UHGV virus genome: UHGV-0299584 | Length of the DNA stretch: 29,351 nt | Source: a virus | Direction: 5' to 3' (one strand) | Shown: one piece after another, positions 4,405 to 28,795 of the stretch | Layout of the letters: each line of letters starts with the position of its first letter | Position numbering within the stretch: the first letter of the stretch is position 1 | Notes under the pieces: model-generated | What the model was told of the DNA's origin: nothing | The model's input: the letters and a program-made list of their open reading frames with translations, nothing else | Databases searched by the model: none | Position numbers and translations under genes: made by a program

Positions 4405-6570
4405 ATGGCCGACGAAAACAGACTCAATTCCATTCTGTGCAAGTTTGACGCGGACTGGATGGCGAGCGATGAAGCCAGAACCGAGGCGACAAATGACCTG
4501 TATTTTAGCCGAGTGTCGCAATGGGATGACTGGCTATCAAACTACACCACCCTGCAATATCGCGGACAATTCGATGTTGTTCGCCCGGTGGTCAGGAAAC
4601 TGGTCGCAGAGATGCGTCGGAACCCTATCGACGTTCTATTCAGACCCAAAGACGGCGCTAATCCTGATGCAGCCGATGTGTTGATGGGGATGTATCGTAC
4701 TGATATGCGCCATAACACGGCAAAGATTGCCGTTAACGTTGGCGTTCGTGAGCAGATAGAGTCCGGCGTTGGTGCATGGCGTCTGGTCACACAGTACGAA
4801 GACAACGACCCAACAAGCAACAATCAGGTAATCCGACGCCTTCCAATCCATGAAGCCTGCTCACACGTCATATGGGACGCAAACAGCAAGCAGATGGATA
4901 AGAGCGACGCTAAGCACTGCACGGTGATTAACGCCTTGTCGCGCAATGGCTGGAAAGAGTTCGCAGAGGATTACGGTATTGATCCTGACACCCTGCCATC
5001 TTTCCAGAATCCGAACGACACATGGCTGTTTCCGTGGGTATCGAATGATGTCGTCTACGTCGCTGAGTATTACGAGGTAGAAGAGAAGAAGGAGAAAGTC
5101 TTCATCTACCGCGACCCGTTGACAGGTGAGCCAGTCAGCTATTACCAGCAGGATATTAAAGACGTTATCGACGACCTGGCTAATCGTGGATTCATTAAGG
5201 TAGCAGAGCGCAAGGTGAAGCGTCGTCGTGTGTATAAGTCGATCATCACCTGCACGCAGATACTGAAAGACCGAGAAAAGATAGCCGGAGAGCATATCCC
5301 AATCGTTCCAGTGTATGGAGAATGGTCATTCGCTGGTGACAAGGAGTGCTACGAGGGAGTGGTAAGGCTGACGAAAGACGGTCAACGCCTTCGTAACATG
5401 ATCATGTCGTTCAACGCCGATATTGTTGCTCGTTCACCGAAGAAGAAACCGACCTTCTTCCCTGAGCAAATCGAAGGCTACGAATACATGTACGGTGGAA
5501 ATGATGACTATCCGTACTATCTGCAGAACAGGACCGATGAAAACGGTAACGACCTGCCGATTGGTCCAATCTCCTACATGGAAAACCCTGAAGTGCCGCA
5601 AGCCAACGCTTACATGCTTGAGGCTGCCACCAACGCAGTGAAAGAGGTGGCTAGTCTTGGCGTGGATGCGCAGGCAGCAAACTCTCAGGTCGCTTTCGAT
5701 ACTGTCAATCAACTGAACATGCGAGCAGACCTTGAGACATATGTGTTTCAGGATAACCTGGCTACCGCAATGCGACGTGATGGCGAGATTTATGCCTCAA
5801 TGGTCAACGATATTTATGACGTTCCTCGTCATGTAACGCTGACACTTGAAGATGGTAGCGAGAAAGACGTTCAACTATACGCGCAAGTTGTAGATTACCA
5901 GTCCGGTAATGTGGTCACGCTCAACGACATTCGCGGTCGCTATGAGTGCTATACAGACGTTGGACCATCCTTCCAGAGTATGAAGGAACAGAACCGCGCA
6001 GAGATTCAGGAGTTGCTCACCAAGGTTCCGCAAGGTACTCCAGAGTTCCAGATGCTGATGCTGCAATACTTCACGCTGCTTGACGGTAAAGGCGTCGAGA
6101 TGATGCGAGAGTACGCGAACAAGCAACTGGTGATGATGGGGCTGAAGAAACCAGAAACACCTGAAGAGATGGAGATGGTACAGCAGGCTCAACAGCAGCC
6201 GCAGCAGCCATCAGCAGAGCAAATTCAGGCGCAGGGTATCCTTCTGCAAGGTCAGGCTGAATTGCTCAAGGCAGAGAACCAACAGGCGCAGATTCAGGTT
6301 GAAGCCGCCAAGGTTGAAGCCCAAAACCAACTCAACGCCGCGAAGATTGCGGAAATCTTCAACAATATGGACCTCGACAAACAGGCAGAACTGCGTGAGT
6401 ACCTCAAGCTCGTAGGTCAATTCCAGCAACAGCGCAGCAAAGATGCTCGTGCTAACGCTGAGCTGCTTCTTAAAGATGCAGACCAGACTCATTCACAACG
6501 CATGGATTTCGCGAATCTTATGCGTCAAGTTCAAATCCCCTCCGGCGGAGTAGCCGAGACACCTCAATAA
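4405..6570 (+). CDS. Portal protein (P22 gp1-like)
   Basis: 721 aa; N-terminus [18 protein letters not shown]... and Q/A-rich C-terminal barrel region match the P22 portal as recalled. GGAG RBS; ATG abuts the terL stop. Confidence 0.95.
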
Positions 6571-17128: not shown

Positions 17129-18790
17129 ATGACAGACATTACAGCCAATGTTGTAGTGAGTATGCCTTCGCAACTCTTCACTATGGCGCGTTCTTTTAAA
17201 GCGGTTGCCAATGGCAAAATTTATATCGGTAAAATTGACGCTGACCCGGTAAATCCTGAAAACCAGATTCAGGTTTATTTAGAGAACGAAGACGGCTCTC
17301 ACGTTCCTGTATCGCAACCAATCATCATTAACGCTGCTGGTTACCCGGTATATAACGGACAGATCGCCAAATTCGTTACTGTACATGGCCATTCTATGGC
17401 TGTTTATGATGCGTACGGTGCTCAGCAGTTCTATTTTCCTAATGTGCTGAAGTACGATCCCGATCAGCTTAGATCACAGATAGAATACGGGCAGTATATT
17501 CACATTCCTGATGGTTATTCACATTATGATGAGTTTGATAATATTCCTCTGAATATATTGGGTGTGGATTATAGTCCTGTTAATGTATATGATGTTTCTT
17601 ATGATGTGTTGACTGGTATATTTAAAGTTTCTGTTCAGAATGCAGATAATTTTCATGTTGGTAAATATTGTATACTTTCTGGCAGGAGAGACATTTCATG
17701 TGGAGCGATGATAATTTCCAAGGATGGAAATGTTTTAACATTGGATATGAGTCACAATGGTATAATTTCAGGCCCGGTTAACGGGGTTGTGGCAAAACCA
17801 ATAAATTCCATAATAAAAACAACAAAAGGAATACAATTTAGATCAAATATATACAGCATAAAAAATGTTGCTATTGAAACAGATGGTGATTACGGACTCA
17901 TTATCGGAGGTGGATACTACCCTGATTCACAATGTGGTAGTTGCGTAGTTTGGGATGCAAACAATTTAATTGTAAATGGAGGCTCTGTTTGTGGAGTTCT
18001 TGTTTCTGGCTCTGGATCTCAGTTTTGTATCAATGAAGTTCATATTACTAACGCAAATATTTCGCTGGAATGTATTTACGCAGCTAGCGTGAAAGGTTTT
18101 TCATTTTCATCATACAATTCAAATGAAGACTCAATTAAGGTTGAGCATGCTTCATCTTGCTATATAAAAGAATTGTCAATTATAAAACCGAAAACTCAGT
18201 CTTGCGTAGCGGCTCGTTATTCATCATCTGTAGAGATATCTGATTGTTATATGGTTGGAAGTGAAGGTTCAGCATTTGCTACCAGCCAATTTTCCTCATA
18301 TTTATCATTAAGAAATATTGTTATGCTAGGGAGCGCAAAATATGCGATAAACTGCGTCGATGGTGCTGTTGTCGCAATAAATAATATCGACGCCTCTTTA
18401 GCTAAAGTGGATTATGGGGTAAGGGTTGAAAAACACTCAGTTTTAAGACAGGTAGGTATAAATAGCAATTTTTCAGGTTCTATTGCCGATTCGCTAATAA
18501 ATAACTCTCATGTTGATTTCAATGATATCGTGTTTTCTGGGAAAAAAATTAAATCAACAATTAATGTTGGTTCAATTAATCCAAACTCTAGATTTTCAAT
18601 TCAGAGGGTAGCTACTGGATATAAAATAGAAAATGAACTTCCAATCAATATGACGGTGTTAGGAGATCTGCCAATAGGGGTTATAACTGATGTATTGGCA
18701 ATATCAGACGACATGATTCGTGTTACATTCCAAAACACTAGCTCATCACCTGTTGATGTTGGCAGTGTTGATGTCATTATAGGATGGTAA
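17129..18790 (+). CDS. Tailspike: conserved head-binding domain fused to a divergent beta-helix receptor-binding domain
   Basis: First ~115 aa ([34 protein letters not shown]...VLKYDPDQ) match the P22/Sf6/HK620 head-binding domain as recalled. The remainder is AT-rich, Ser/Asn/Ile/Gly-rich and shows no recognisable similarity to P22 gp9. GGAG RBS. Confidence 0.85.
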
Positions 18791-18875: not shown

Positions 18876-19469
18876 TTATAGTAATCGCCTATCCCATTTC
18901 ACACCTGTTTTGATTATTTTTGCTGGAGTACCAGCAATAATAATATTGCTTTCAGAAAATTTACCAGTTACAGTTGCCCTTGCGCCAACAATAGTTTCAT
19001 CTGGAATAAAGGCACCTTTCATGATGAGCGCATCAAGACCAATCCAGCACTTATCTCCTATTGATATGTTTTTTGCTGGATTTATCCTGTTTCCATCCAT
19101 ATCTGTTATTGAATGTGAGTCTGTTGTTCTTATTTGAACGCCTGACGCAAACATGCAATTAACACCAATTGAAACACTAGTCCCCTCTTGAATGTTTATA
19201 TTGGTGTTCTGAAAGCTTGTAAGGCTTGATATCACGAGACAGTTCCCATCGCCTCTCATATTTACAGAGCCAACTATAGAACACCTCTCACCGATATTAA
19301 TAGTATTATTATCACCATTTATCAAAATGGATAAATTATGTATTTTTGCATGCTTTTCTATATTTATATGATTGTTCTTTCCATTAATGCGAATAGATAT
19401 TTTTTTTATGTCAGCATCAACATGATTTATAGAGTTATTTTCTCCGGAAATCTGTTTTATTATATCCAT
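18876..19469 (-). CDS. Hexapeptide-repeat (left-handed beta-helix) acetyl/acyltransferase, moron
   Basis: Product shows periodic [LIV]-G-x4 hexads (INIGERCSIVGSVNMRGDGNCLVISS..., ISIGDKCWIGLDALIMKGAFIPDETIVGARATVTG) typical of the LacA/WcaF/CysE-type family. AT-rich; sits between tailspike and int. ATG 19469 preferred over TTG 19481. Confidence 0.7.
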   Translation of the reverse strand: MDIIKQISGENNSINHVDADIKKISIRINGKNNHINIEKHAKIHNLSILINGDNNTINIGERCSIVGSVNMRGDGNCLVISSLTSFQNTNINIQEGTSVSIGVNCMFASGVQIRTTDSHSITDMDGNRINPAKNISIGDKCWIGLDALIMKGAFIPDETIVGARATVTGKFSESNIIIAGTPAKIIKTGVKWDRRLL

Positions 19470-19783
19470 CACTATACTCAATTATTTTGATTGATTTATT
19501 TACAACTTATTAATGTATATGTCATAAATTATATCATAATTTTAATAAAAATCAATATACGAGGTTTTGCATGTATATATTGTAATTTATTGCATATGTT
19601 GATAATAAATTTTATTTGATGCTTAACATAATTATCATGAAATTAGTTATTCAATAACTCTTGTTTTTTAATGTGACAATCACGTTGCTTATATTTAATA
19701 ATGAAACTATATGGTTTTATTATTAAATTTGTGTTTACCTAGATGAATTAATTGTTTTATTTATGATTTTTATCATGGAATCA

Positions 19784-20941
19784 TTAATCCACCTTTTCAT
19801 CAACCCAATCCGCCCACCACTGCATCATTTCTCTGCGCTTATCGAGATACTGAGCATGGTTGTAAATCCCGCGCACAGATCCGCCGTTGGCATGTGCCAG
19901 TTGCGCTTCAATAGCATCAGCAGGCCATTCGTGCTCGTTCATAATCGTGCTGAATTCATGCCTGAATCCGTGACCGCTTTCCAGACCCTCATAGCCGATT
20001 TGTTTGATCACAAGTAGCACCGCGTTCTCGCAGATTGGCTTTTTCTTATCGTTGCGCCCGGCAAAAACAAACTCTGATACTGGTTTGGTGATTGAACTTA
20101 GCGTAGTGAGAAGTTCAACTACCTGGTCTGACATAGGAACCACATGAATTTTGCGTCCCTTCATCACACTGGCGTCGATGGTGATAATCCTGTTTTCAAA
20201 ATCGACGTTCTTCCATAGCATGGAACGAAGCTCTTTCGTTCTTAGGGCTGTGTAGCGTAAAACTTTGGTCGCAATGAGCGATACGATACTTCCTGAAAAT
20301 GTTGCCAGTGCTTTGTTGAATGCCGGGATCTGGTCTGCAGGAAGAAACGGGAAGTTCTTCTTGCGGTATCCCTTCATGGCGTCAGCAAGGTCAGGTGCCG
20401 GGTTATATTTAGCCCTACCAGTGACAATAGCGTAACGGAAAACCTCGCCGCATCTTCTGCGGGCTTTGTTGGCTCGCTCCATTGCACCGCGATCTTCAAA
20501 TCTGCGGATTACTTCCAGTAGTTGCATCGGCTCAATATCCTGAATTTCAAGACCGCCGATGATGGGTAAAATGTCGTCATCAAACATTTTTGCAAGTTCA
20601 TTTGCATAGCCTACTGACCAGACTTGCTTCTTGTGCTCGTACCATTCCTTGTAAATGGCGCTAAAGGAATTGTTGTTAGACGAAGCCTTTTTCGCCTTTA
20701 CCGGATCGATGCCAACCGAGATGTCTTTCCTCGCAGTCCATGCTTTATCCCTTGCCTCTTGCAAAGTCATAAGCGGATATTTTCCGACGGTCAGTATTTT
20801 CTCCTTACCGTCAATCTTGTAGCGAAGCTGCCATACCTTTTTCCCTGACACAGGGACATAAAGGTACAGGCCATTACCATCGAGTAGGCGGTATGGTTTT
20901 TCTTTCGGTTTTGCTGCTTCAATCTGCTTAACGGTGAGCAT
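19784..20941 (-). CDS. int: Tyrosine integrase (P4-like family)
   Basis: Product has the typical N-terminal arm (LTVKQIEAAKPKEKPYRLLDGNGLYLYV) and C-terminal catalytic region (...HGFRHEFSTIM..., ...RGIYNHAQYLDKRREMMQWWADW). Start ATG 20941, or GTG 20977 as in the ORF track. Confidence 0.9.
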   Translation of the reverse strand: MLTVKQIEAAKPKEKPYRLLDGNGLYLYVPVSGKKVWQLRYKIDGKEKILTVGKYPLMTLQEARDKAWTARKDISVGIDPVKAKKASSNNNSFSAIYKEWYEHKKQVWSVGYANELAKMFDDDILPIIGGLEIQDIEPMQLLEVIRRFEDRGAMERANKARRRCGEVFRYAIVTGRAKYNPAPDLADAMKGYRKKNFPFLPADQIPAFNKALATFSGSIVSLIATKVLRYTALRTKELRSMLWKNVDFENRIITIDASVMKGRKIHVVPMSDQVVELLTTLSSITKPVSEFVFAGRNDKKKPICENAVLLVIKQIGYEGLESGHGFRHEFSTIMNEHEWPADAIEAQLAHANGGSVRGIYNHAQYLDKRREMMQWWADWVDEKVD

Positions 20942-20986
20942 GGGTAAAAATCCGGTGGGTAAAATTATTTTATCCACTTTTTACCC
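20942..20986. repeat. Cluster of TTTTACCC / GGGTAAAA octamers (putative arm-type Int-binding sites)
   Basis: GGGTAAAA at 20942-20949 and 20957-20964; TTTTACCC at 20979-20986, read directly. Confidence 0.4.
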
Positions 20987-21723: not shown

Positions 21724-21981
21724 TTACCGCACCTCCAGTCTCCATACCGCCTGACCAATCCGGCTGGCATATGTATCTTTGGATACTGCTCCGTCTTTAG
21801 CCAGCTCCATAAGAATTTTGCGCAAATCTGCCGAACGCCATTCTTCATCAGGAAATTCCTTCTCCATTGCCAACCGCAAATTCCAGGTTGCCATCCTGAA
21901 TGGATATTCCCCGCCGAGAGCTTTATCTTGCAGGGCAGCCCGGGAACGCATCACCTGCAAAACCTTCTCTTTTACATCCAT
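21724..21981 (-). CDS. Hypothetical early-left protein (85 aa)
   Basis: ATG overlaps the upstream stop (TGATG); last gene of the coupled chain. Confidence 0.6.
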   Translation of the reverse strand: MDVKEKVLQVMRSRAALQDKALGGEYPFRMATWNLRLAMEKEFPDEEWRSADLRKILMELAKDGAVSKDTYASRIGQAVWRLEVR

Positions 21982-22991
21982 CACTTCACCTCCTGCTGTG
22001 GTGCTGCTGGCATTTCACGCCAGTGCGTAACTGAGTGCGGATCCGGATATTCGGTGCCATCATCCCAGCGATTGCCATTCCACATTGCAGACCACATCTC
22101 ACCGTCTTCATACATGACCATTACCGGAATTAACTTATCCGGCATTCGCTCACTACAGCTTATCCAACCATCCGGAGTCACCGGAAGCGAGAACGGCAGC
22201 ACATCTCTGTGAACAAGTTTTTGCTGTGACAGGTTATCCAGAACTTTCTGTACTGCTGCATCACCGAATACACCAAGCGCATCTGCCATAACTCCTACAA
22301 CCTGATAAGCCTCAGCGCATACCGTGGATAAACCATCCGGAATTACCGGAGAGTTGCCGGGTTCTTTAATGTGCAAGCGAGGCTCACCATCTTTTGGTTC
22401 AGGCCACTGGCGCTCCATGTTGATCTTCAATTTATCTTCCATAGCAGCGGTAATTTCAGCATCGCTGATGCCAGCACGGCGCTGTGCATCCCACAACAGG
22501 AAATGCATATCAGCCCACTCGCTGAGATCGTCTGGTTCGGCTGCGGCTTCCAGAGCCTCTTTTGAGAGGTGTTTCAGTGGACCAATGGGGCCAACGCAGC
22601 CAAATGTGGAGTCAGACCATTTGGCATGCTCGTGGCGAATCAGTTCGCGTTCCAGTGATGCCAGTGCAATTCGTGCCAGTTCTTCCGCTTCTTCTGCTGG
22701 CAGTACAACGTTGCTACCAGGTCCGTATGTTTCGCGCCACCGCTTGATTGTCAGCAGTCGCTCTTTGGTAATAGTGCTCATGGGTTTTCCCTCCGCCATC
22801 TCTTCATCGGTTTCCCATAAAACTCGCGCCTGCCCCTCACAGACTTGAATGACTCCGCCACGACCGCAGGAGTTGCACTTAACGGCATCGTCATCCCACA
22901 AGGCGGTTTCATTTCCGCGAGCTGTTTTGACCGTGTGTGATTTATTCCCGCAGCGGCATTTGTTGAGCCAGTCAATAGTGAAAGTTTTCAT
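21981..22991 (-). CDS. EaA-like multidomain early protein (Cys cluster, DUF550-like, DUF551-like)
   Basis: N-terminal CxC...CxxC cluster (CRCGNKSH...CNSCGRGG); a central region resembling the dATP/dGTP pyrophosphohydrolase-like DUF550; a C-terminal domain sharing motifs with the 71-aa protein at 1633-1848. ATGA overlap with the upstream gene. Confidence 0.7.
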   Translation of the reverse strand: MKTFTIDWLNKCRCGNKSHTVKTARGNETALWDDDAVKCNSCGRGGVIQVCEGQARVLWETDEEMAEGKPMSTITKERLLTIKRWRETYGPGSNVVLPAEEAEELARIALASLERELIRHEHAKWSDSTFGCVGPIGPLKHLSKEALEAAAEPDDLSEWADMHFLLWDAQRRAGISDAEITAAMEDKLKINMERQWPEPKDGEPRLHIKEPGNSPVIPDGLSTVCAEAYQVVGVMADALGVFGDAAVQKVLDNLSQQKLVHRDVLPFSLPVTPDGWISCSERMPDKLIPVMVMYEDGEMWSAMWNGNRWDDGTEYPDPHSVTHWREMPAAPQQEVK

Positions 22992-25433: not shown

Positions 25434-26038
25434 TAAGCAGCCGCTCCTTCTAATTCGTCTCGTCTGATGTTGTAAACGTCCTGCGCTTTGTGCTGCTCCG
25501 GTGTGCCTTCGAGCATCTTCCACGCTTTGGCGAACGCCTGTTTAAGCTCTTCCACGGTGTTTTTCTGCATTGCTGCGTCAGTGAATGCTTTTAGAACCTG
25601 TTCAGGTGTAGGTGATGGGTTTGATTGCTTTGCTGCTGCGTTCTGCTGATGTTTATGCTCGTCTGTATCTGCATCTTTCGCATCATCAATGCCGAATAAA
25701 CCATTGAGGCAATACTTGCGTGCATAAGAGCTTGTAGCTCCCGTAACTTGTGCAGAATCCATTCCTTTCTTGCTTTCTTCCTCTCGTGCAAGAGCGGTTG
25801 CCGTATGACTGTTTTCGCCATCGGTAATAGTTGCCGTGGCTTTCACGTAATACCGATCACCAATCAACACAACTTCATCGCTGATTGATAAAAACAGGCC
25901 ATTCAGTAACGGCTTAACACCCTCAAGAATGTCTTCGCAGCTTCTGTATTTATATTTGCCGAATGAGTTGTATTGATTCTTTGGCGCGTTCAGATTCTCC
26001 TGAATAGCTGCCAGTCTTGCGTAAAATTCTTTGCTCAT
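25433..26038 (-). CDS. erf: Erf-family single-strand annealing recombinase
   Basis: Product from ATG 26038 (MSKEFYARLAAIQENLNAPKNQYNSFGKYKYRSCEDILEGVKPLLNGLFLSISDEVVLIGDRYYVKATATITDGENSH...) matches P22 Erf as recalled. Confidence 0.85.
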   Translation of the reverse strand: MSKEFYARLAAIQENLNAPKNQYNSFGKYKYRSCEDILEGVKPLLNGLFLSISDEVVLIGDRYYVKATATITDGENSHTATALAREEESKKGMDSAQVTGATSSYARKYCLNGLFGIDDAKDADTDEHKHQQNAAAKQSNPSPTPEQVLKAFTDAAMQKNTVEELKQAFAKAWKMLEGTPEQHKAQDVYNIRRDELEGAAA

Positions 26039-26139
26039 ATGATTGTTCTCAGAATGGACATGGACCAAGGAAATAACGCTGATTTAATACTTCTACTCGG
26101 GACAAATTAAGGCATACCCGCATTCCTTCGCGGTCGCCA

Positions 26140-26298
26140 TTATGGCGATACCAGAGAGCTTTCTGCGTGTACATGCGTCTCTGTAACTTGCTCTCCTTCA
26201 CTGTGGTTGCAAGTGACATGAATATCTCCTTCGTTACCGATTAATTCTTTCATCTGACGAATGAATTCTTCGTCTGACCAGTTATCCGTAAAACTCAT
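26140..26298 (-). CDS. Hypothetical small acidic protein (52 aa) in the kil-equivalent position
   Basis: ATG 26298 overlaps the cIII-like stop (ATGA); product MSFTDNWSDEEFIRQMKELIGNEGDIHVTCNHSEGEQ... Confidence 0.45.
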   Translation of the reverse strand: MSFTDNWSDEEFIRQMKELIGNEGDIHVTCNHSEGEQVTETHVHAESSLVSP

Positions 26299-26465
26299 GG
26301 ACGGCCTTGTTGTTTCAAAATATCCCAAAGCTTTTCGAGCAAACTTTTCATTCTTGGTTGTTTAAAGTCTGCTCCGGTTAAAATATTTTTTCGTGAATGC
26401 TGTACCGATAAAATCGGGTTGAAAGGGCGAACCGATGCCGCCCCTGCAATAGCGAACTGTTGCAT
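26295..26465 (-). CDS. cIII: cIII-like small regulator (putative FtsH inhibitor)
   Basis: 56-aa product from ATG 26465 (AGGAG RBS) begins MQQFAIAG, like lambda CIII MQYAIAG, and lies between N and the recombination genes. Confidence 0.6.
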   Translation of the reverse strand: MQQFAIAGAASVRPFNPILSVQHSRKNILTGADFKQPRMKSLLEKLWDILKQQGRP

Positions 26466-26617
26466 AGGATGCTCCTTCTGTTTGATTGCATAACGAAAAC
26501 GCCTCGAGTGAAGCGTTATTGGTATGCATATAAAAAAGCCCCCACACTGGAGGGCAAAGAAGATTTCCAATAATCAGAACAAGTCGGCTCCTGTTTAGTT
26601 ACGAGCGACATTGCTCC

Positions 26618-26645
26618 GTGTATTCACTCGTTGGAATGAATACAC
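26618..26645. repeat. Perfect 9-bp inverted repeat GTGTATTCA / TGAATACAC with 10-nt spacer
   Basis: Read directly; intergenic, between the 207-aa gene and cIII. Confidence 0.8.
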
Positions 26646-26673
26646 AGTGCTATGTTTATTCTGTTGTTTATGC

Positions 26674-26699
26674 CAAAAATAAAGGCCGACTATGCGGCC
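26674..26699 (-). terminator. Putative intrinsic terminator after the 207-aa gene
   Basis: - strand reads GGCCG-catagt-CGGCC followed by TTTATTTTTGG; the gene's stop codon lies in the loop. Confidence 0.45.
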
Positions 26700-27313
26700 T
26701 CGGAAGGAAGTCCAATCATCTTATTCAAATCTTCTACCCGTAAAGCAGGAAGTGCTGTACTTGCTTTATCTGCTTCTTTTGGTAGCAACTCTTTGCTTTC
26801 AGGCCAAACTTCAATAAGTCGCTTAACTGTTGTGACTGAGTTCAAAGCAGCCCATACATTTGATTCGATATCCTTTTTCTTGGCTTCAAGTTTTTGTTGC
26901 AATGCGCAGATTTCATCAAACCTTTTTGTTATTTCGTGTTCTGCGTCAAACATGCATTTATCTTTTTCTGGGGTGGGGAGCAATATATCTTCACCGTTGC
27001 CGTCTTTTCCGTATGAATGCCAGCCAACTCTTCTGCCAGATACAGTCAGATAAATTGAAGCAAAACGAACATCGCATGAGTAAAATGAACATCCCAGTTT
27101 TTCAAGTTCTTCACTTATAGCTACTAACTTGGATGATAACTGATCCACTTCCTCAGTTTTCTTTTTACCGCCAAACGCAATAACTCTGGCGTCAAGTGCA
27201 AGCTGGTTCTTTAACTTTATTACTTCTTCAAGTTCAGTGAAAACCCCAGACTTAATTAAAGCGTTACGAGCGATTTCCTCTTTCATTCTCGTAGTTAAGC
27301 GGATTGATGACAT
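26690..27313 (-). CDS. Unrecognised 207-aa protein, AT-rich, between N and cIII
   Basis: ATG 27313 with GAGAGGAA RBS, 11 nt after the N stop. No transmembrane segment or motif I recognise. Visibly lower GC than flanking genes (not computed). Confidence 0.6.
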   Translation of the reverse strand: MSSIRLTTRMKEEIARNALIKSGVFTELEEVIKLKNQLALDARVIAFGGKKKTEEVDQLSSKLVAISEELEKLGCSFYSCDVRFASIYLTVSGRRVGWHSYGKDGNGEDILLPTPEKDKCMFDAEHEITKRFDEICALQQKLEAKKKDIESNVWAALNSVTTVKRLIEVWPESKELLPKEADKASTALPALRVEDLNKMIGLPSEAA

Positions 27314-27324
27314 ATTAATTCCTC

Positions 27325-27624
27325 TCAAATAAGTGGTTTGCTGCCTAATTTCATTTTCTGGCGACCAACACAAGTCACACCTATTTCACTGCGTGGCTTG
27401 CTGTAGTAAATACGGTTCTGTTTACGCTCGACTTCTTCTGCCTTCTTGCAGCGAAGGCTTCCGAGTGATGCTGCTTTATCTGCTCTGACGCAACCAGAGA
27501 GCTTTAGCGAAATTTTTCGCGCCAGTCGCTGCTCTTGCATTGCCTGTTCACGTTGAGCCTGTCTGCGTGCTCTGCGGCGATTTCTGGCGTTATCGTCAGC
27601 CAGATATGTAATGACTACTGTCAT
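27325..27624 (-). CDS. N: N-family transcription antiterminator
   Basis: 99-aa product with an N-terminal arginine-rich motif (NARNRRRARRQAQREQ). C-terminus NRIYYSKPRSEIGVTCVGRQKMKLGSKPLI matches lambda N (RTWYSKPGERGITCSGRQKIKGKSIPLI) as recalled. GGAGG RBS. Confidence 0.8.
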   Translation of the reverse strand: MTVVITYLADDNARNRRRARRQAQREQAMQEQRLARKISLKLSGCVRADKAASLGSLRCKKAEEVERKQNRIYYSKPRSEIGVTCVGRQKMKLGSKPLI

Positions 27625-27937
27625 GTTGACCTCCGATGAAACAACTTTGGAATTTTTTTATTACAAAGTGGTTTCCTTCCCCGCCAATTAGACGGGGATG
27701 GAAGAGCATTTATGAGCCTTCATGGACTCTGCTCGATCAGTTCTATTTAATTAATCTCTCAATTGAATGTAAGTATTCACATAAATCCTCCTACCTCTTG
27801 TGCAGCTTTCTTGAATATGGTGGCGGCTGCATAACGCCTATGGAATTGACTTTGGCGGTGACGCGCCGGGTGCTTATCTTCCGGTTGCCGTCGTGCAGCT
27901 GCACTTCACGTCACCCCAAAGCCAACTACTCTTTGGT

Positions 27938-27978
27938 TCCCGCATTTCGGCGGGACAATCCCATCAATGTTAAAGAGC
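27938..27978 (-). promoter_or_regulatory. nutL: boxA (GCTCTTTAACA) plus boxB hairpin (TCCCGCCGAAATGCGGGA) on the pL transcript
   Basis: - strand reads GGCTCTTTAACA, 12-nt spacer, TCCCGCCGAAATGCGGGA; the same 18-nt boxB recurs in nutR at 29094-29111. Confidence 0.65.
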
Positions 27979-28025
27979 CTGCCAATCTGTTCCGTTTGGC
28001 TACCAGCGTCCTGCTGATGGCTTAA

Positions 28026-28110
28026 ATTTAAGATCTCTTTAATTAATGGTCAAGGGGATTTTTGAAGAAAACTTAAATTTTCTTTCGTAACTTAAGTTTA
28101 GCTTTGATTT
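28026..28110 (-). promoter_or_regulatory. OL / pL operator-promoter region
   Basis: ATTTAAGATCTCTTTAAT at 28026-28043 has the same ATTTAAG-N4-CTTTAAT architecture as OR1; further ACTTAA-containing repeats follow. Confidence 0.5.
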
Positions 28111-28121
28111 TTAAAGGAAAT

Positions 28122-28142
28122 AAAAAAAGGGGCGAATGCCCC
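28122..28142 (-). terminator. Intrinsic terminator immediately downstream of cI
   Basis: - strand reads GGGGC-attc-GCCCC followed by TTTTTTT, 2 nt past the cI stop. Confidence 0.6.
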
Positions 28143-28144
28143 CC

Positions 28145-28795
28145 TTATGGAAGGTTTGCTAGTTTTGCATCGACAACTACGCCGATGATTTTGCAGTTTC
28201 CGTTGATCTCGATCATCGGATATTGTGGGTTAAGTGGTTTTAGAAACTTCCTGCCTGCATCAATAACTAACTTCTTGAAAGTTGCCTCGTTTTCTCCTTC
28301 GAGCTTTGCAACTACAAGTTTCCCGTTACGCGGCTCTACTTCAGGATCGACGAGTATTATCATTCCTTCAGGGATACTGAGACCGGCCGGAGCCGTCATT
28401 GAGTCTCCCTTCACGTCCAACCAAAACGAATCTTCTGAACAGTCTACGGTTGTATCGTACCAGTTATCTATTGCACGCTTATGATATGGTTCTACAGCTT
28501 CCATCCAGCATCCTGCGCTCACCCAGCTAATCAGAGGGTATGACCCTCTTGGATCATGCCTACTGTGATAGGCAATGTTTGAAAGACTTTCCTCTCCTTT
28601 CATCAGATAGTCAGGGGAACACTTCAACGCATTAGCCAGGGCGAGAAGATTCTCTCCATTTGGCTCTGTCTCAGAGCGTTCCCACTGAGATATGGCAACA
28701 TTAGACACGCCGACCATCTTTCCAAGTGCGGCCTGCCTGATCTTGAGTTCTTTTCTCCGAGCGCGAATGCGCTCTCCCATCAATTGAGTTTTCAT
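28145..28795 (-). CDS. cI: CI-type repressor (P22 c2-like), LexA-like S24 autocleavage domain
   Basis: 216-aa product MKTQLMGERIRARRKELKIRQAALGKMVGVSNVAISQWERSE... matches the P22 c2 repressor as recalled; has the helix-turn-helix, the Ser (GDSM) and the Lys (NGKLVVAKL) of the S24 dyad. Confidence 0.93.
   Translation of the reverse strand: MKTQLMGERIRARRKELKIRQAALGKMVGVSNVAISQWERSETEPNGENLLALANALKCSPDYLMKGEESLSNIAYHSRHDPRGSYPLISWVSAGCWMEAVEPYHKRAIDNWYDTTVDCSEDSFWLDVKGDSMTAPAGLSIPEGMIILVDPEVEPRNGKLVVAKLEGENEATFKKLVIDAGRKFLKPLNPQYPMIEINGNCKIIGVVVDAKLANLP

Follow-up and report, generated by a model that had tools for sequence, protein, structure and literature searches.

The DNA considered here, referred to throughout as the window, is the whole 29,351-nt stretch of the virus genome UHGV-0299584, and all coordinates refer to that stretch. 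Its leftward early operon, read on the minus strand, runs from a pL-like promoter through a nutL-like site, the antiterminator gene N, a gene of the Nmad5 family, a cluster of terminators, and cIII to kil and the recombination genes for Erf, SSB, and Abc2. The features needed for the argument are as follows.

28146 to 28125, minus strand: cI terminator, with the pL-like promoter just downstream
28025 to 28053, minus strand: pL-like promoter, TTGACC-17-TAAATT, located by promoter scan
27978 to 27968, minus strand: boxA-like GCTCTTTAACA of the nutL-like site, read from the sequence
27954 to 27939, minus strand: boxB-like hairpin CCCGC-cgaaat-GCGGG of the nutL-like site, read from the sequence
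27325 to 27624, minus strand: N antiterminator gene, matching at 97–99% identity the regions that bear the N annotation in CUS-3 and Gally
27319 to 27326, minus strand: Shine-Dalgarno sequence GAGAGGAA of the Nmad5 gene, read directly from the sequence
26690 to 27313, minus strand: Nmad5-family coding sequence, 207 aa plus TAG, from the ORF list, the sequence, and Pfam and PHROG matches
26701 to 27323, minus strand: exchangeable cassette (cargo of slot A, the slot after N), delimited by homology breakpoints
26532 to 26700, minus strand: 171-bp conserved backbone segment, 95–97% identical by blastn to CUS-3, HF4s, N7, and Gally
26295 to 26465, minus strand: cIII-like gene (MQQFAIAG...), from its ORF translation, with a counterpart annotated as cIII in mEp235 and CUS-3

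The gene and its setting in the pL operon

Read from the sequence, the Nmad5-family gene begins with an ATG at 27313 and ends with a TAG at 26692–26690, so that the 207-aa reading frame proposed in the initial annotation is confirmed and assigned to the minus strand (27313..26690). An extension in the ORF list to a TTG at 27373 is ruled out as the start because all of the homologues aligned (23 of 23) begin at the same methionine as that encoded at 27313; they share the N-terminal pattern M-S/T-S-x-R-L-T. The strong ribosome-binding site attributed to the gene is present as well. It reads GAGAGGAA at 27326–27319, with a spacing of 5 nt to the ATG, and overlaps the TGA stop codon of N (27327–27325); the gap between that stop codon and the Nmad5 ATG is 11 nt. 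Compared with the allele of mEp235, the gene has a dN/dS of 0.27.

In base composition the gene (40.1% GC, with a GC3 of 32.9%) lies below N (48.5%), cIII (42.9%), and the window as a whole (47.0%). The earlier observation that it is more AT-rich than N and cIII is thus correct as a comparison of neighbors, but it does not single the gene out: among 621-bp windows taken across the window, its GC content falls ~1.3 standard deviations under the mean, at only the 11th percentile, a modest bias and no outlier. The real AT-rich outlier of the window is found near 19 kb, where GC in a 621-bp window reaches its minimum of 24.8%. This AT-richest stretch, between the tailspike gene (17129–18790) and the integrase gene (19784–20977), contains a 201-aa ORF (18876–19481, minus strand) that has no Pfam or PADLOC match and whose sole match is to PHROG 30105, which has no assigned function. 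On visual inspection the 201-aa product resembles a hexapeptide-repeat (left-handed β-helix) acyltransferase, and the ORF is possibly a moron encoding a serotype-conversion O-acetyltransferase, comparable to neuO of CUS-3.

The leader upstream of N carries a putative antitermination site. The designation of 27939..27978 as nutL-like is our own, made on its resemblance to the P22/lambda nut consensus, and the boxA-like element GCTCTTTAACA is one that we take to be of P22 type; the exact lambda boxA, CGCTCTTA, is absent from the leader. Scans detected no promoter-like site from pL down to the Nmad5 gene and no terminator-like or promoter-like site between N and that gene, and the Rfam scan of 26000–28300 returned no credible RNA family, its single match scoring 18.5 bits where the gathering score is 94. 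The first gene past the terminator cluster is the cIII-like gene. Because the Nmad5 gene has no promoter of its own, follows directly on N in translation, and precedes the first terminators, the anatomy and the consensus scans suggest that the two genes would share the immediate-early pL transcript, which does not depend on N, and would be expressed before antitermination is established. With no promoter after pL and a gap of 11 nt to N, the gene should likewise be repressed in a lysogen and silent in the repressed prophage. The early region of this genome also encodes a 336-aa protein (21981–22991, minus strand) that has both a dATP/dGTP pyrophosphohydrolase domain (PF04447) and DUF551, a nucleotide-metabolism accessory gene of the ea region.

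An exchangeable slot bounded by N and a terminator segment

Comparison with CUS-3 defines the limits of the exchanged DNA. A blastn match of 99% stops at 27324, the base after the N stop codon, and homology to CUS-3 resumes only in the 171-bp segment at 26532–26700. With breakpoints at 27324 and 26700, the cassette is therefore 26701–27323, which is essentially the open reading frame and its ribosome-binding site. The 171-bp segment carries two terminator-like hairpins (26701–26682 and 26555–26538), and a third is situated just downstream of it (26517–26498); the terminator scan of the region yielded 10 sites where 3.3 were expected. In the first of these hairpins, 7 pairs, 5 of them G-C, are followed by TATTTTT, and the stop codon of the Nmad5 gene sits in the loop. 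The initial annotation had credited the gene with a terminator of its own. A hairpin with a U-run does exist at 26701–26682, but it falls within the segment shared with CUS-3, HF4s, N7, and Gally, and since that segment is common to relatives with other cargo, the terminator is part of the phage backbone rather than the property of the Nmad5 gene.

The contents of the slot differ from one relative to another. CUS-3 has ral and a 140-aa gene there, N7 has ral and a 121-aa gene, HF4s encodes a 149-aa transmembrane (TM) protein, Gally has genes of 83 and 149 aa, and mEp235 has nun together with an Nmad5 gene. The proposal that the position after N is an accessory hotspot is well supported by these relatives, which carry ral, nun, a TM protein, or other cargo, and the comparison across related P22-like and lambdoid phages, in which the cargo varies, makes the Nmad5 gene an accessory rather than a core gene. 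In the window it is the sole cargo of an exchangeable slot between the N stop codon and the conserved terminator cluster. Within the N-to-cIII region, the 171-bp segment also separates two cargo slots that are independent of each other. The second, from the segment to cIII, is empty here, and in N-01, HF4s, and N7 it encodes a coiled-coil protein of 322 aa.

A trace of such an exchange is seen in mEp235, where ~100 bp between nun and Nmad5 (mEp235 4897–5000) match the 3′ end of the N gene of the window (27314–27417) at ~97%; the stretch is a relic of cassette exchange by recombination within N. In Klebsiella lambdoid prophages, whose immunity region is of another type and which lack N, the genes on the pL side of the repressor gene begin with a 57%-identical homolog, placed before kil.

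Ral of lambda and P22 and other early pL cargo, namely Nun and SieB, are comparable to the Nmad5 gene in occupying the same exchangeable position right after N in close relatives. The resemblance does not extend to the proteins. Ral has ~66 aa as opposed to 207, and in CUS-3 and N7 ral occupies that slot as a gene in its own right. SieB resides in the membrane, whereas no transmembrane segment is found in the 207-aa protein, for which the Kyte-Doolittle mean over 19 residues peaks at 0.99 and the AlphaFold2 model is soluble and helical; these properties, along with the lack of a promoter-like site upstream, uphold the initial statements that the product has no transmembrane segment and is not SieB-like. 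The Ral, Nun, and SieB families were all missing from the Pfam matches of the protein.

Family membership, predicted fold, and conserved residues

The gene had been presented as undescribed and its product as having no recognizable motif, and in both respects the searches indicate the opposite. Pfam PF18757 (Nmad5) is matched end to end, with residues 4–203 aligned to model positions 1–206 of 206 (E = 1.1e-69) at a score of 235.1 bits against a Pfam gathering cutoff of 27, and the protein also matches PHROG 1965, a family without assigned function (E = 1.9e-81). The Pfam name stands for “nucleotide modification associated domain 5,” and the original computational description of Nmad5 is that of Iyer et al. 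in 2013, as cited in PMC11846954 (ref. 29). A 100% identical gene in Escherichia coli N-01 bears the RefSeq name “Nmad5 family putative nucleotide modification protein,” such names being given routinely by the NCBI pipeline, and copies at 95–96% identity are found in mEp235 (mEp235_037), HK542, PhiR12 phages, and Stx1a phages. By megablast, the gene is present at 90% identity or more in 211 of 5,426 complete E. coli genomes (~4%). It is thus already catalogued, with annotation attached to its identical and near-identical copies.

In Stx2a phages the Nmad5 match, at ~94%, covers residues 34–207 only (for example, LC616075.1, 11131–11652), and each of those phage records has a second place that matches; the copies in these phages may be disrupted or rearranged.

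Beyond the lambdoid phages, a profile search of 1.84 billion representatives, each standing for a cluster at 50% identity, recovered, at E ≤ 1e-3, 2,274 clusters. The 150 highest-ranking among them are all stand-alone proteins, nearly all of ~180–230 aa with a few short fragments, and fused domains that might have served as functional hints were not found among them. Homologs are present in the strictly lytic Dhillonvirus, Yuavirus, and Schitoviridae. A search of plasmids for the leading-region placement typical of anti-defense genes gave six non-mobilizable records, five of them phage-sized (24–49 kb). No defense family in PADLOC-DB v2 was matched by the protein at E ≤ 1, nothing meaningful was matched in NCBIfam, and searches of the literature on PF18757, mEp235, and lambdoid anti-defense hotspots brought up nothing concerning this gene. 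The “NMAD” defense domain of DefensePredictor was discarded as a lead, as the supplement of that work identifies it as Nmad2 (PF18753), not Nmad5.

An AlphaFold2 model of the 207-aa protein, built from an alignment of 24 sequences, is confident (pLDDT 85.5, pTM 0.70). It predicts three long N-terminal helices (residues 8–72), a small β meander (~86–121), and a long helix (127–158), followed by a C-terminal part made up of short helices, a disordered stretch at 183–192, and a last conserved helix. A fold search of the PDB with this model found no relative, and a sequence search of PDB chains gave chance matches only, all with E ≥ 0.38. Among the 12 matches that Foldseek returned from BFVD at E ≤ 1e-3, several bear the name Nmad5, and TM-scores lie at 0.6–0.74. 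Neither an enzyme-like fold nor a DNA-binding or replisome-related one emerged from the fold searches.

Conservation was computed over 145 diverse Nmad5 members with a median identity of 30%. Residues conserved family-wide in this set include Arg-5, Ile-14, Ala-18, Arg-43, Gly-48, Gly-49, and Gly-93, and conservation of at least 0.94 is reached at Thr-162, Leu-166, Trp-170, Pro-171, Glu-172, Leu-176, Pro-178, Leu-196, Asn-197, and Gly-201, which gives a C-terminal signature of the form T-x3-L-x3-WPE-x3-L-x-P ... LN-x3-G-L-P. No catalytic-looking set could be found among the residues conserved across the 145 members, and an enzyme-like signature is absent from the protein. The conserved residues, concentrated in the C-terminal 50, make up a structural or interaction signature. 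The middle β region (residues 73–126) is the least conserved, with a mean of 0.29 against 0.67 for residues 159–180, and five of the eight differences from the mEp235 allele fall within it.

The protein therefore resembles the Nmad5 family in its full-length profile match, its stand-alone architecture of ~200 aa, its WPE and LN-x3-G-x-P signature, and a predicted fold that matches Nmad5 phage proteins in BFVD. It departs from the YuA-type members in that their association with hypermodification genes is absent here, where the gene is instead the lone cargo of a lambdoid pL slot.

Genetic evidence, alternative roles, and a proposed function

The only genetics for the Nmad5 family come from Dhillonvirus, in which mutants that escape the Tmn defense carry K296E (SM_S22) or K216E (SM_A8) in nmad5 (Yamashita et al. 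2025, PMC11846954). Reverting the escape change restores sensitivity to Tmn, deletion of nmad5 gives no escape, and attempts to clone the gene failed, apparently owing to its toxicity (PMC11846954). In SM_S22, nmad5 is CDS6 (5005–6009, minus strand), annotated as 334 aa and overlapping the head-scaffold gene; by comparison with the 254-aa Dhillonvirus homolog Oekolampad gp07, its true start is very probably Met-81, which would explain the difference between the K296 and K216 numbering in PMC11846954. The lysine in question aligns with Arg-165 of the protein studied here, five residues before the invariant WPE. The Dhillonvirus protein belongs to the same family, its C-terminal module can be aligned with the one described above, and its gene is also a non-core accessory. 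It differs in having only 24% identity and a middle region ~50 residues larger, and in the location of its gene on the opposite strand within the head-morphogenesis module of a virulent siphovirus.

A second phage protein connected with Tmn offers a point of comparison. The T2 early protein RIIB directly activates Tmn, and some RIIB variants bind Tmn yet do not activate it (bioRxiv 10.64898/2026.03.01.708804). Like the nmad5 product, T-even RIIB is an early, non-essential protein, and in both of them single missense changes alter the outcome with Tmn. In contrast, loss of RIIB gives escape from Tmn while deletion of nmad5 does not, and there is no detectable homology between the two; T4 RIIB was rejected as a distant Nmad5 relative at an hhalign probability of 0.5%. 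The parallel suggests that Nmad5 proteins may physically contact defense machines such as Tmn.

The reading preferred here, to which a probability of roughly 0.4 is assigned, is that the Nmad5 protein has no enzymatic activity and, made in the immediate-early phase, binds a host factor or a component of a defense system, thereby acting as an accessory in counter-defense or host takeover. An elongated helical protein would bind its target early in infection, with the conserved helical stalk and C-terminal module providing the constant function of the family and the poorly conserved β-rich insert (~73–126) setting its specificity. An arms-race role is plausible by analogy with the one genetic result in the 24%-identical Dhillonvirus homolog (PMC11846954).

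It is possible, if somewhat doubtful, that the protein instead assists phage DNA replication, recombination, or nucleotide metabolism as an accessory factor, or serves general takeover by targeting the replisome or nucleoid of the host, and that it takes no direct part in immunity. The contexts of the gene in lytic phages, within replication and nucleotide-metabolism modules, fit a function in DNA metabolism at least as well as one in counter-defense. In an N4-like Salmonella phage the homolog lies between ThyX and a PD-(D/E)XK nuclease plus primase, in YuA it is flanked by the 5-hmdU DNA kinase and dU hydroxymethylase genes, upstream of DNA polymerase, and in Vibrio phage Athena1 it comes just ahead of replication protein O. 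The presence of Erf, SSB, and Abc2 in the pL operon of this window points in the same direction, as does the toxicity that hindered cloning of the Dhillonvirus homolog (PMC11846954). These associations are not uniform, however. A conserved partner gene was sought in seven phage contexts and none was found, and the Dhillonvirus copy is a lone opposite-strand gene in the head module, between spanin and scaffold genes. Moreover, the Nmad5 gene is dispensable, being replaced by unrelated cargo in close relatives, and the folds that such a role might lead one to expect, DNA-binding or replisome-related, did not appear in the fold searches.

The annotated function, by which the protein would be a nucleotide- or DNA-modification enzyme or else a scaffold or targeting subunit of one, is improbable. 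The “modification” label rests only on gene neighborhood in YuA/M6-like phages, and the family name reflects the thymidine-hypermodification cluster of M6/YuA/SN1-type Pseudomonas phages, in which the Nmad5 gene is found beside the 5-hmdU DNA kinase. In M6 the thymidine-hypermodification pathway has been reconstituted enzyme by enzyme, and its steps were assigned to gp51–gp54, a transferase, a PLP decarboxylase, a radical-SAM isomerase, and a kinase, none of them an Nmad5 homolog (PMC8989533). Nor are modification genes among the neighbors of the gene here (N and cIII/kil/erf) or in mEp235, N-01, and the Klebsiella prophages, and the family lacks catalytic-looking invariant residues, as the protein lacks an enzyme-like fold.

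A prophage-encoded defense or superinfection-exclusion gene protecting the lysogen, an idea raised in the initial annotation and encouraged by the occurrence of nun (mEp235) and a TM protein (HF4s) in the same slot and by an AT bias like that of many morons, is similarly improbable, and a prophage-expressed exclusion role is unlikely, given a gene that follows N by 11 nt with no promoter-like site after pL, homologs in obligately lytic phages of three groups (Dhillonvirus, Yuavirus, and Schitoviridae), and a product with neither a PADLOC match nor a TM segment.

Extended from this one gene to all of its relatives, the host-factor or defense-binding reading would make Nmad5 an extensive family of new structure, its members being first-wave phage proteins directed at host immunity, a generalization that is decidedly tentative. 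More than 2,000 clusters would then represent early proteins that are non-enzymatic, have a fold without counterpart in the PDB, and play no part in nucleotide modification; they would physically engage host immune or takeover targets, the variable β insert setting target specificity. A change of charge by the WPE motif, at the position of Arg-165 here, could turn such a protein from one sensed by Tmn into one that blocks it. The lambdoid copy would be a first-wave counter-defense factor, with a timing comparable to that of T7 Ocr. The family name is probably misleading.

As a sequence the gene is ordinary, a catalogued member of its family, and its value lies in providing a tractable handle on the large Nmad5 family. 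The lambdoid copies reside in genetically easy phages such as mEp235 and HK542, as a sharply bounded single-gene cassette on what would be the earliest transcript. The borders of that cassette, the N stop codon on one side and the 171-bp terminator segment on the other, also yield a simple criterion by which early accessory genes can be collected from prophages of the P22-like and lambdoid kinds.
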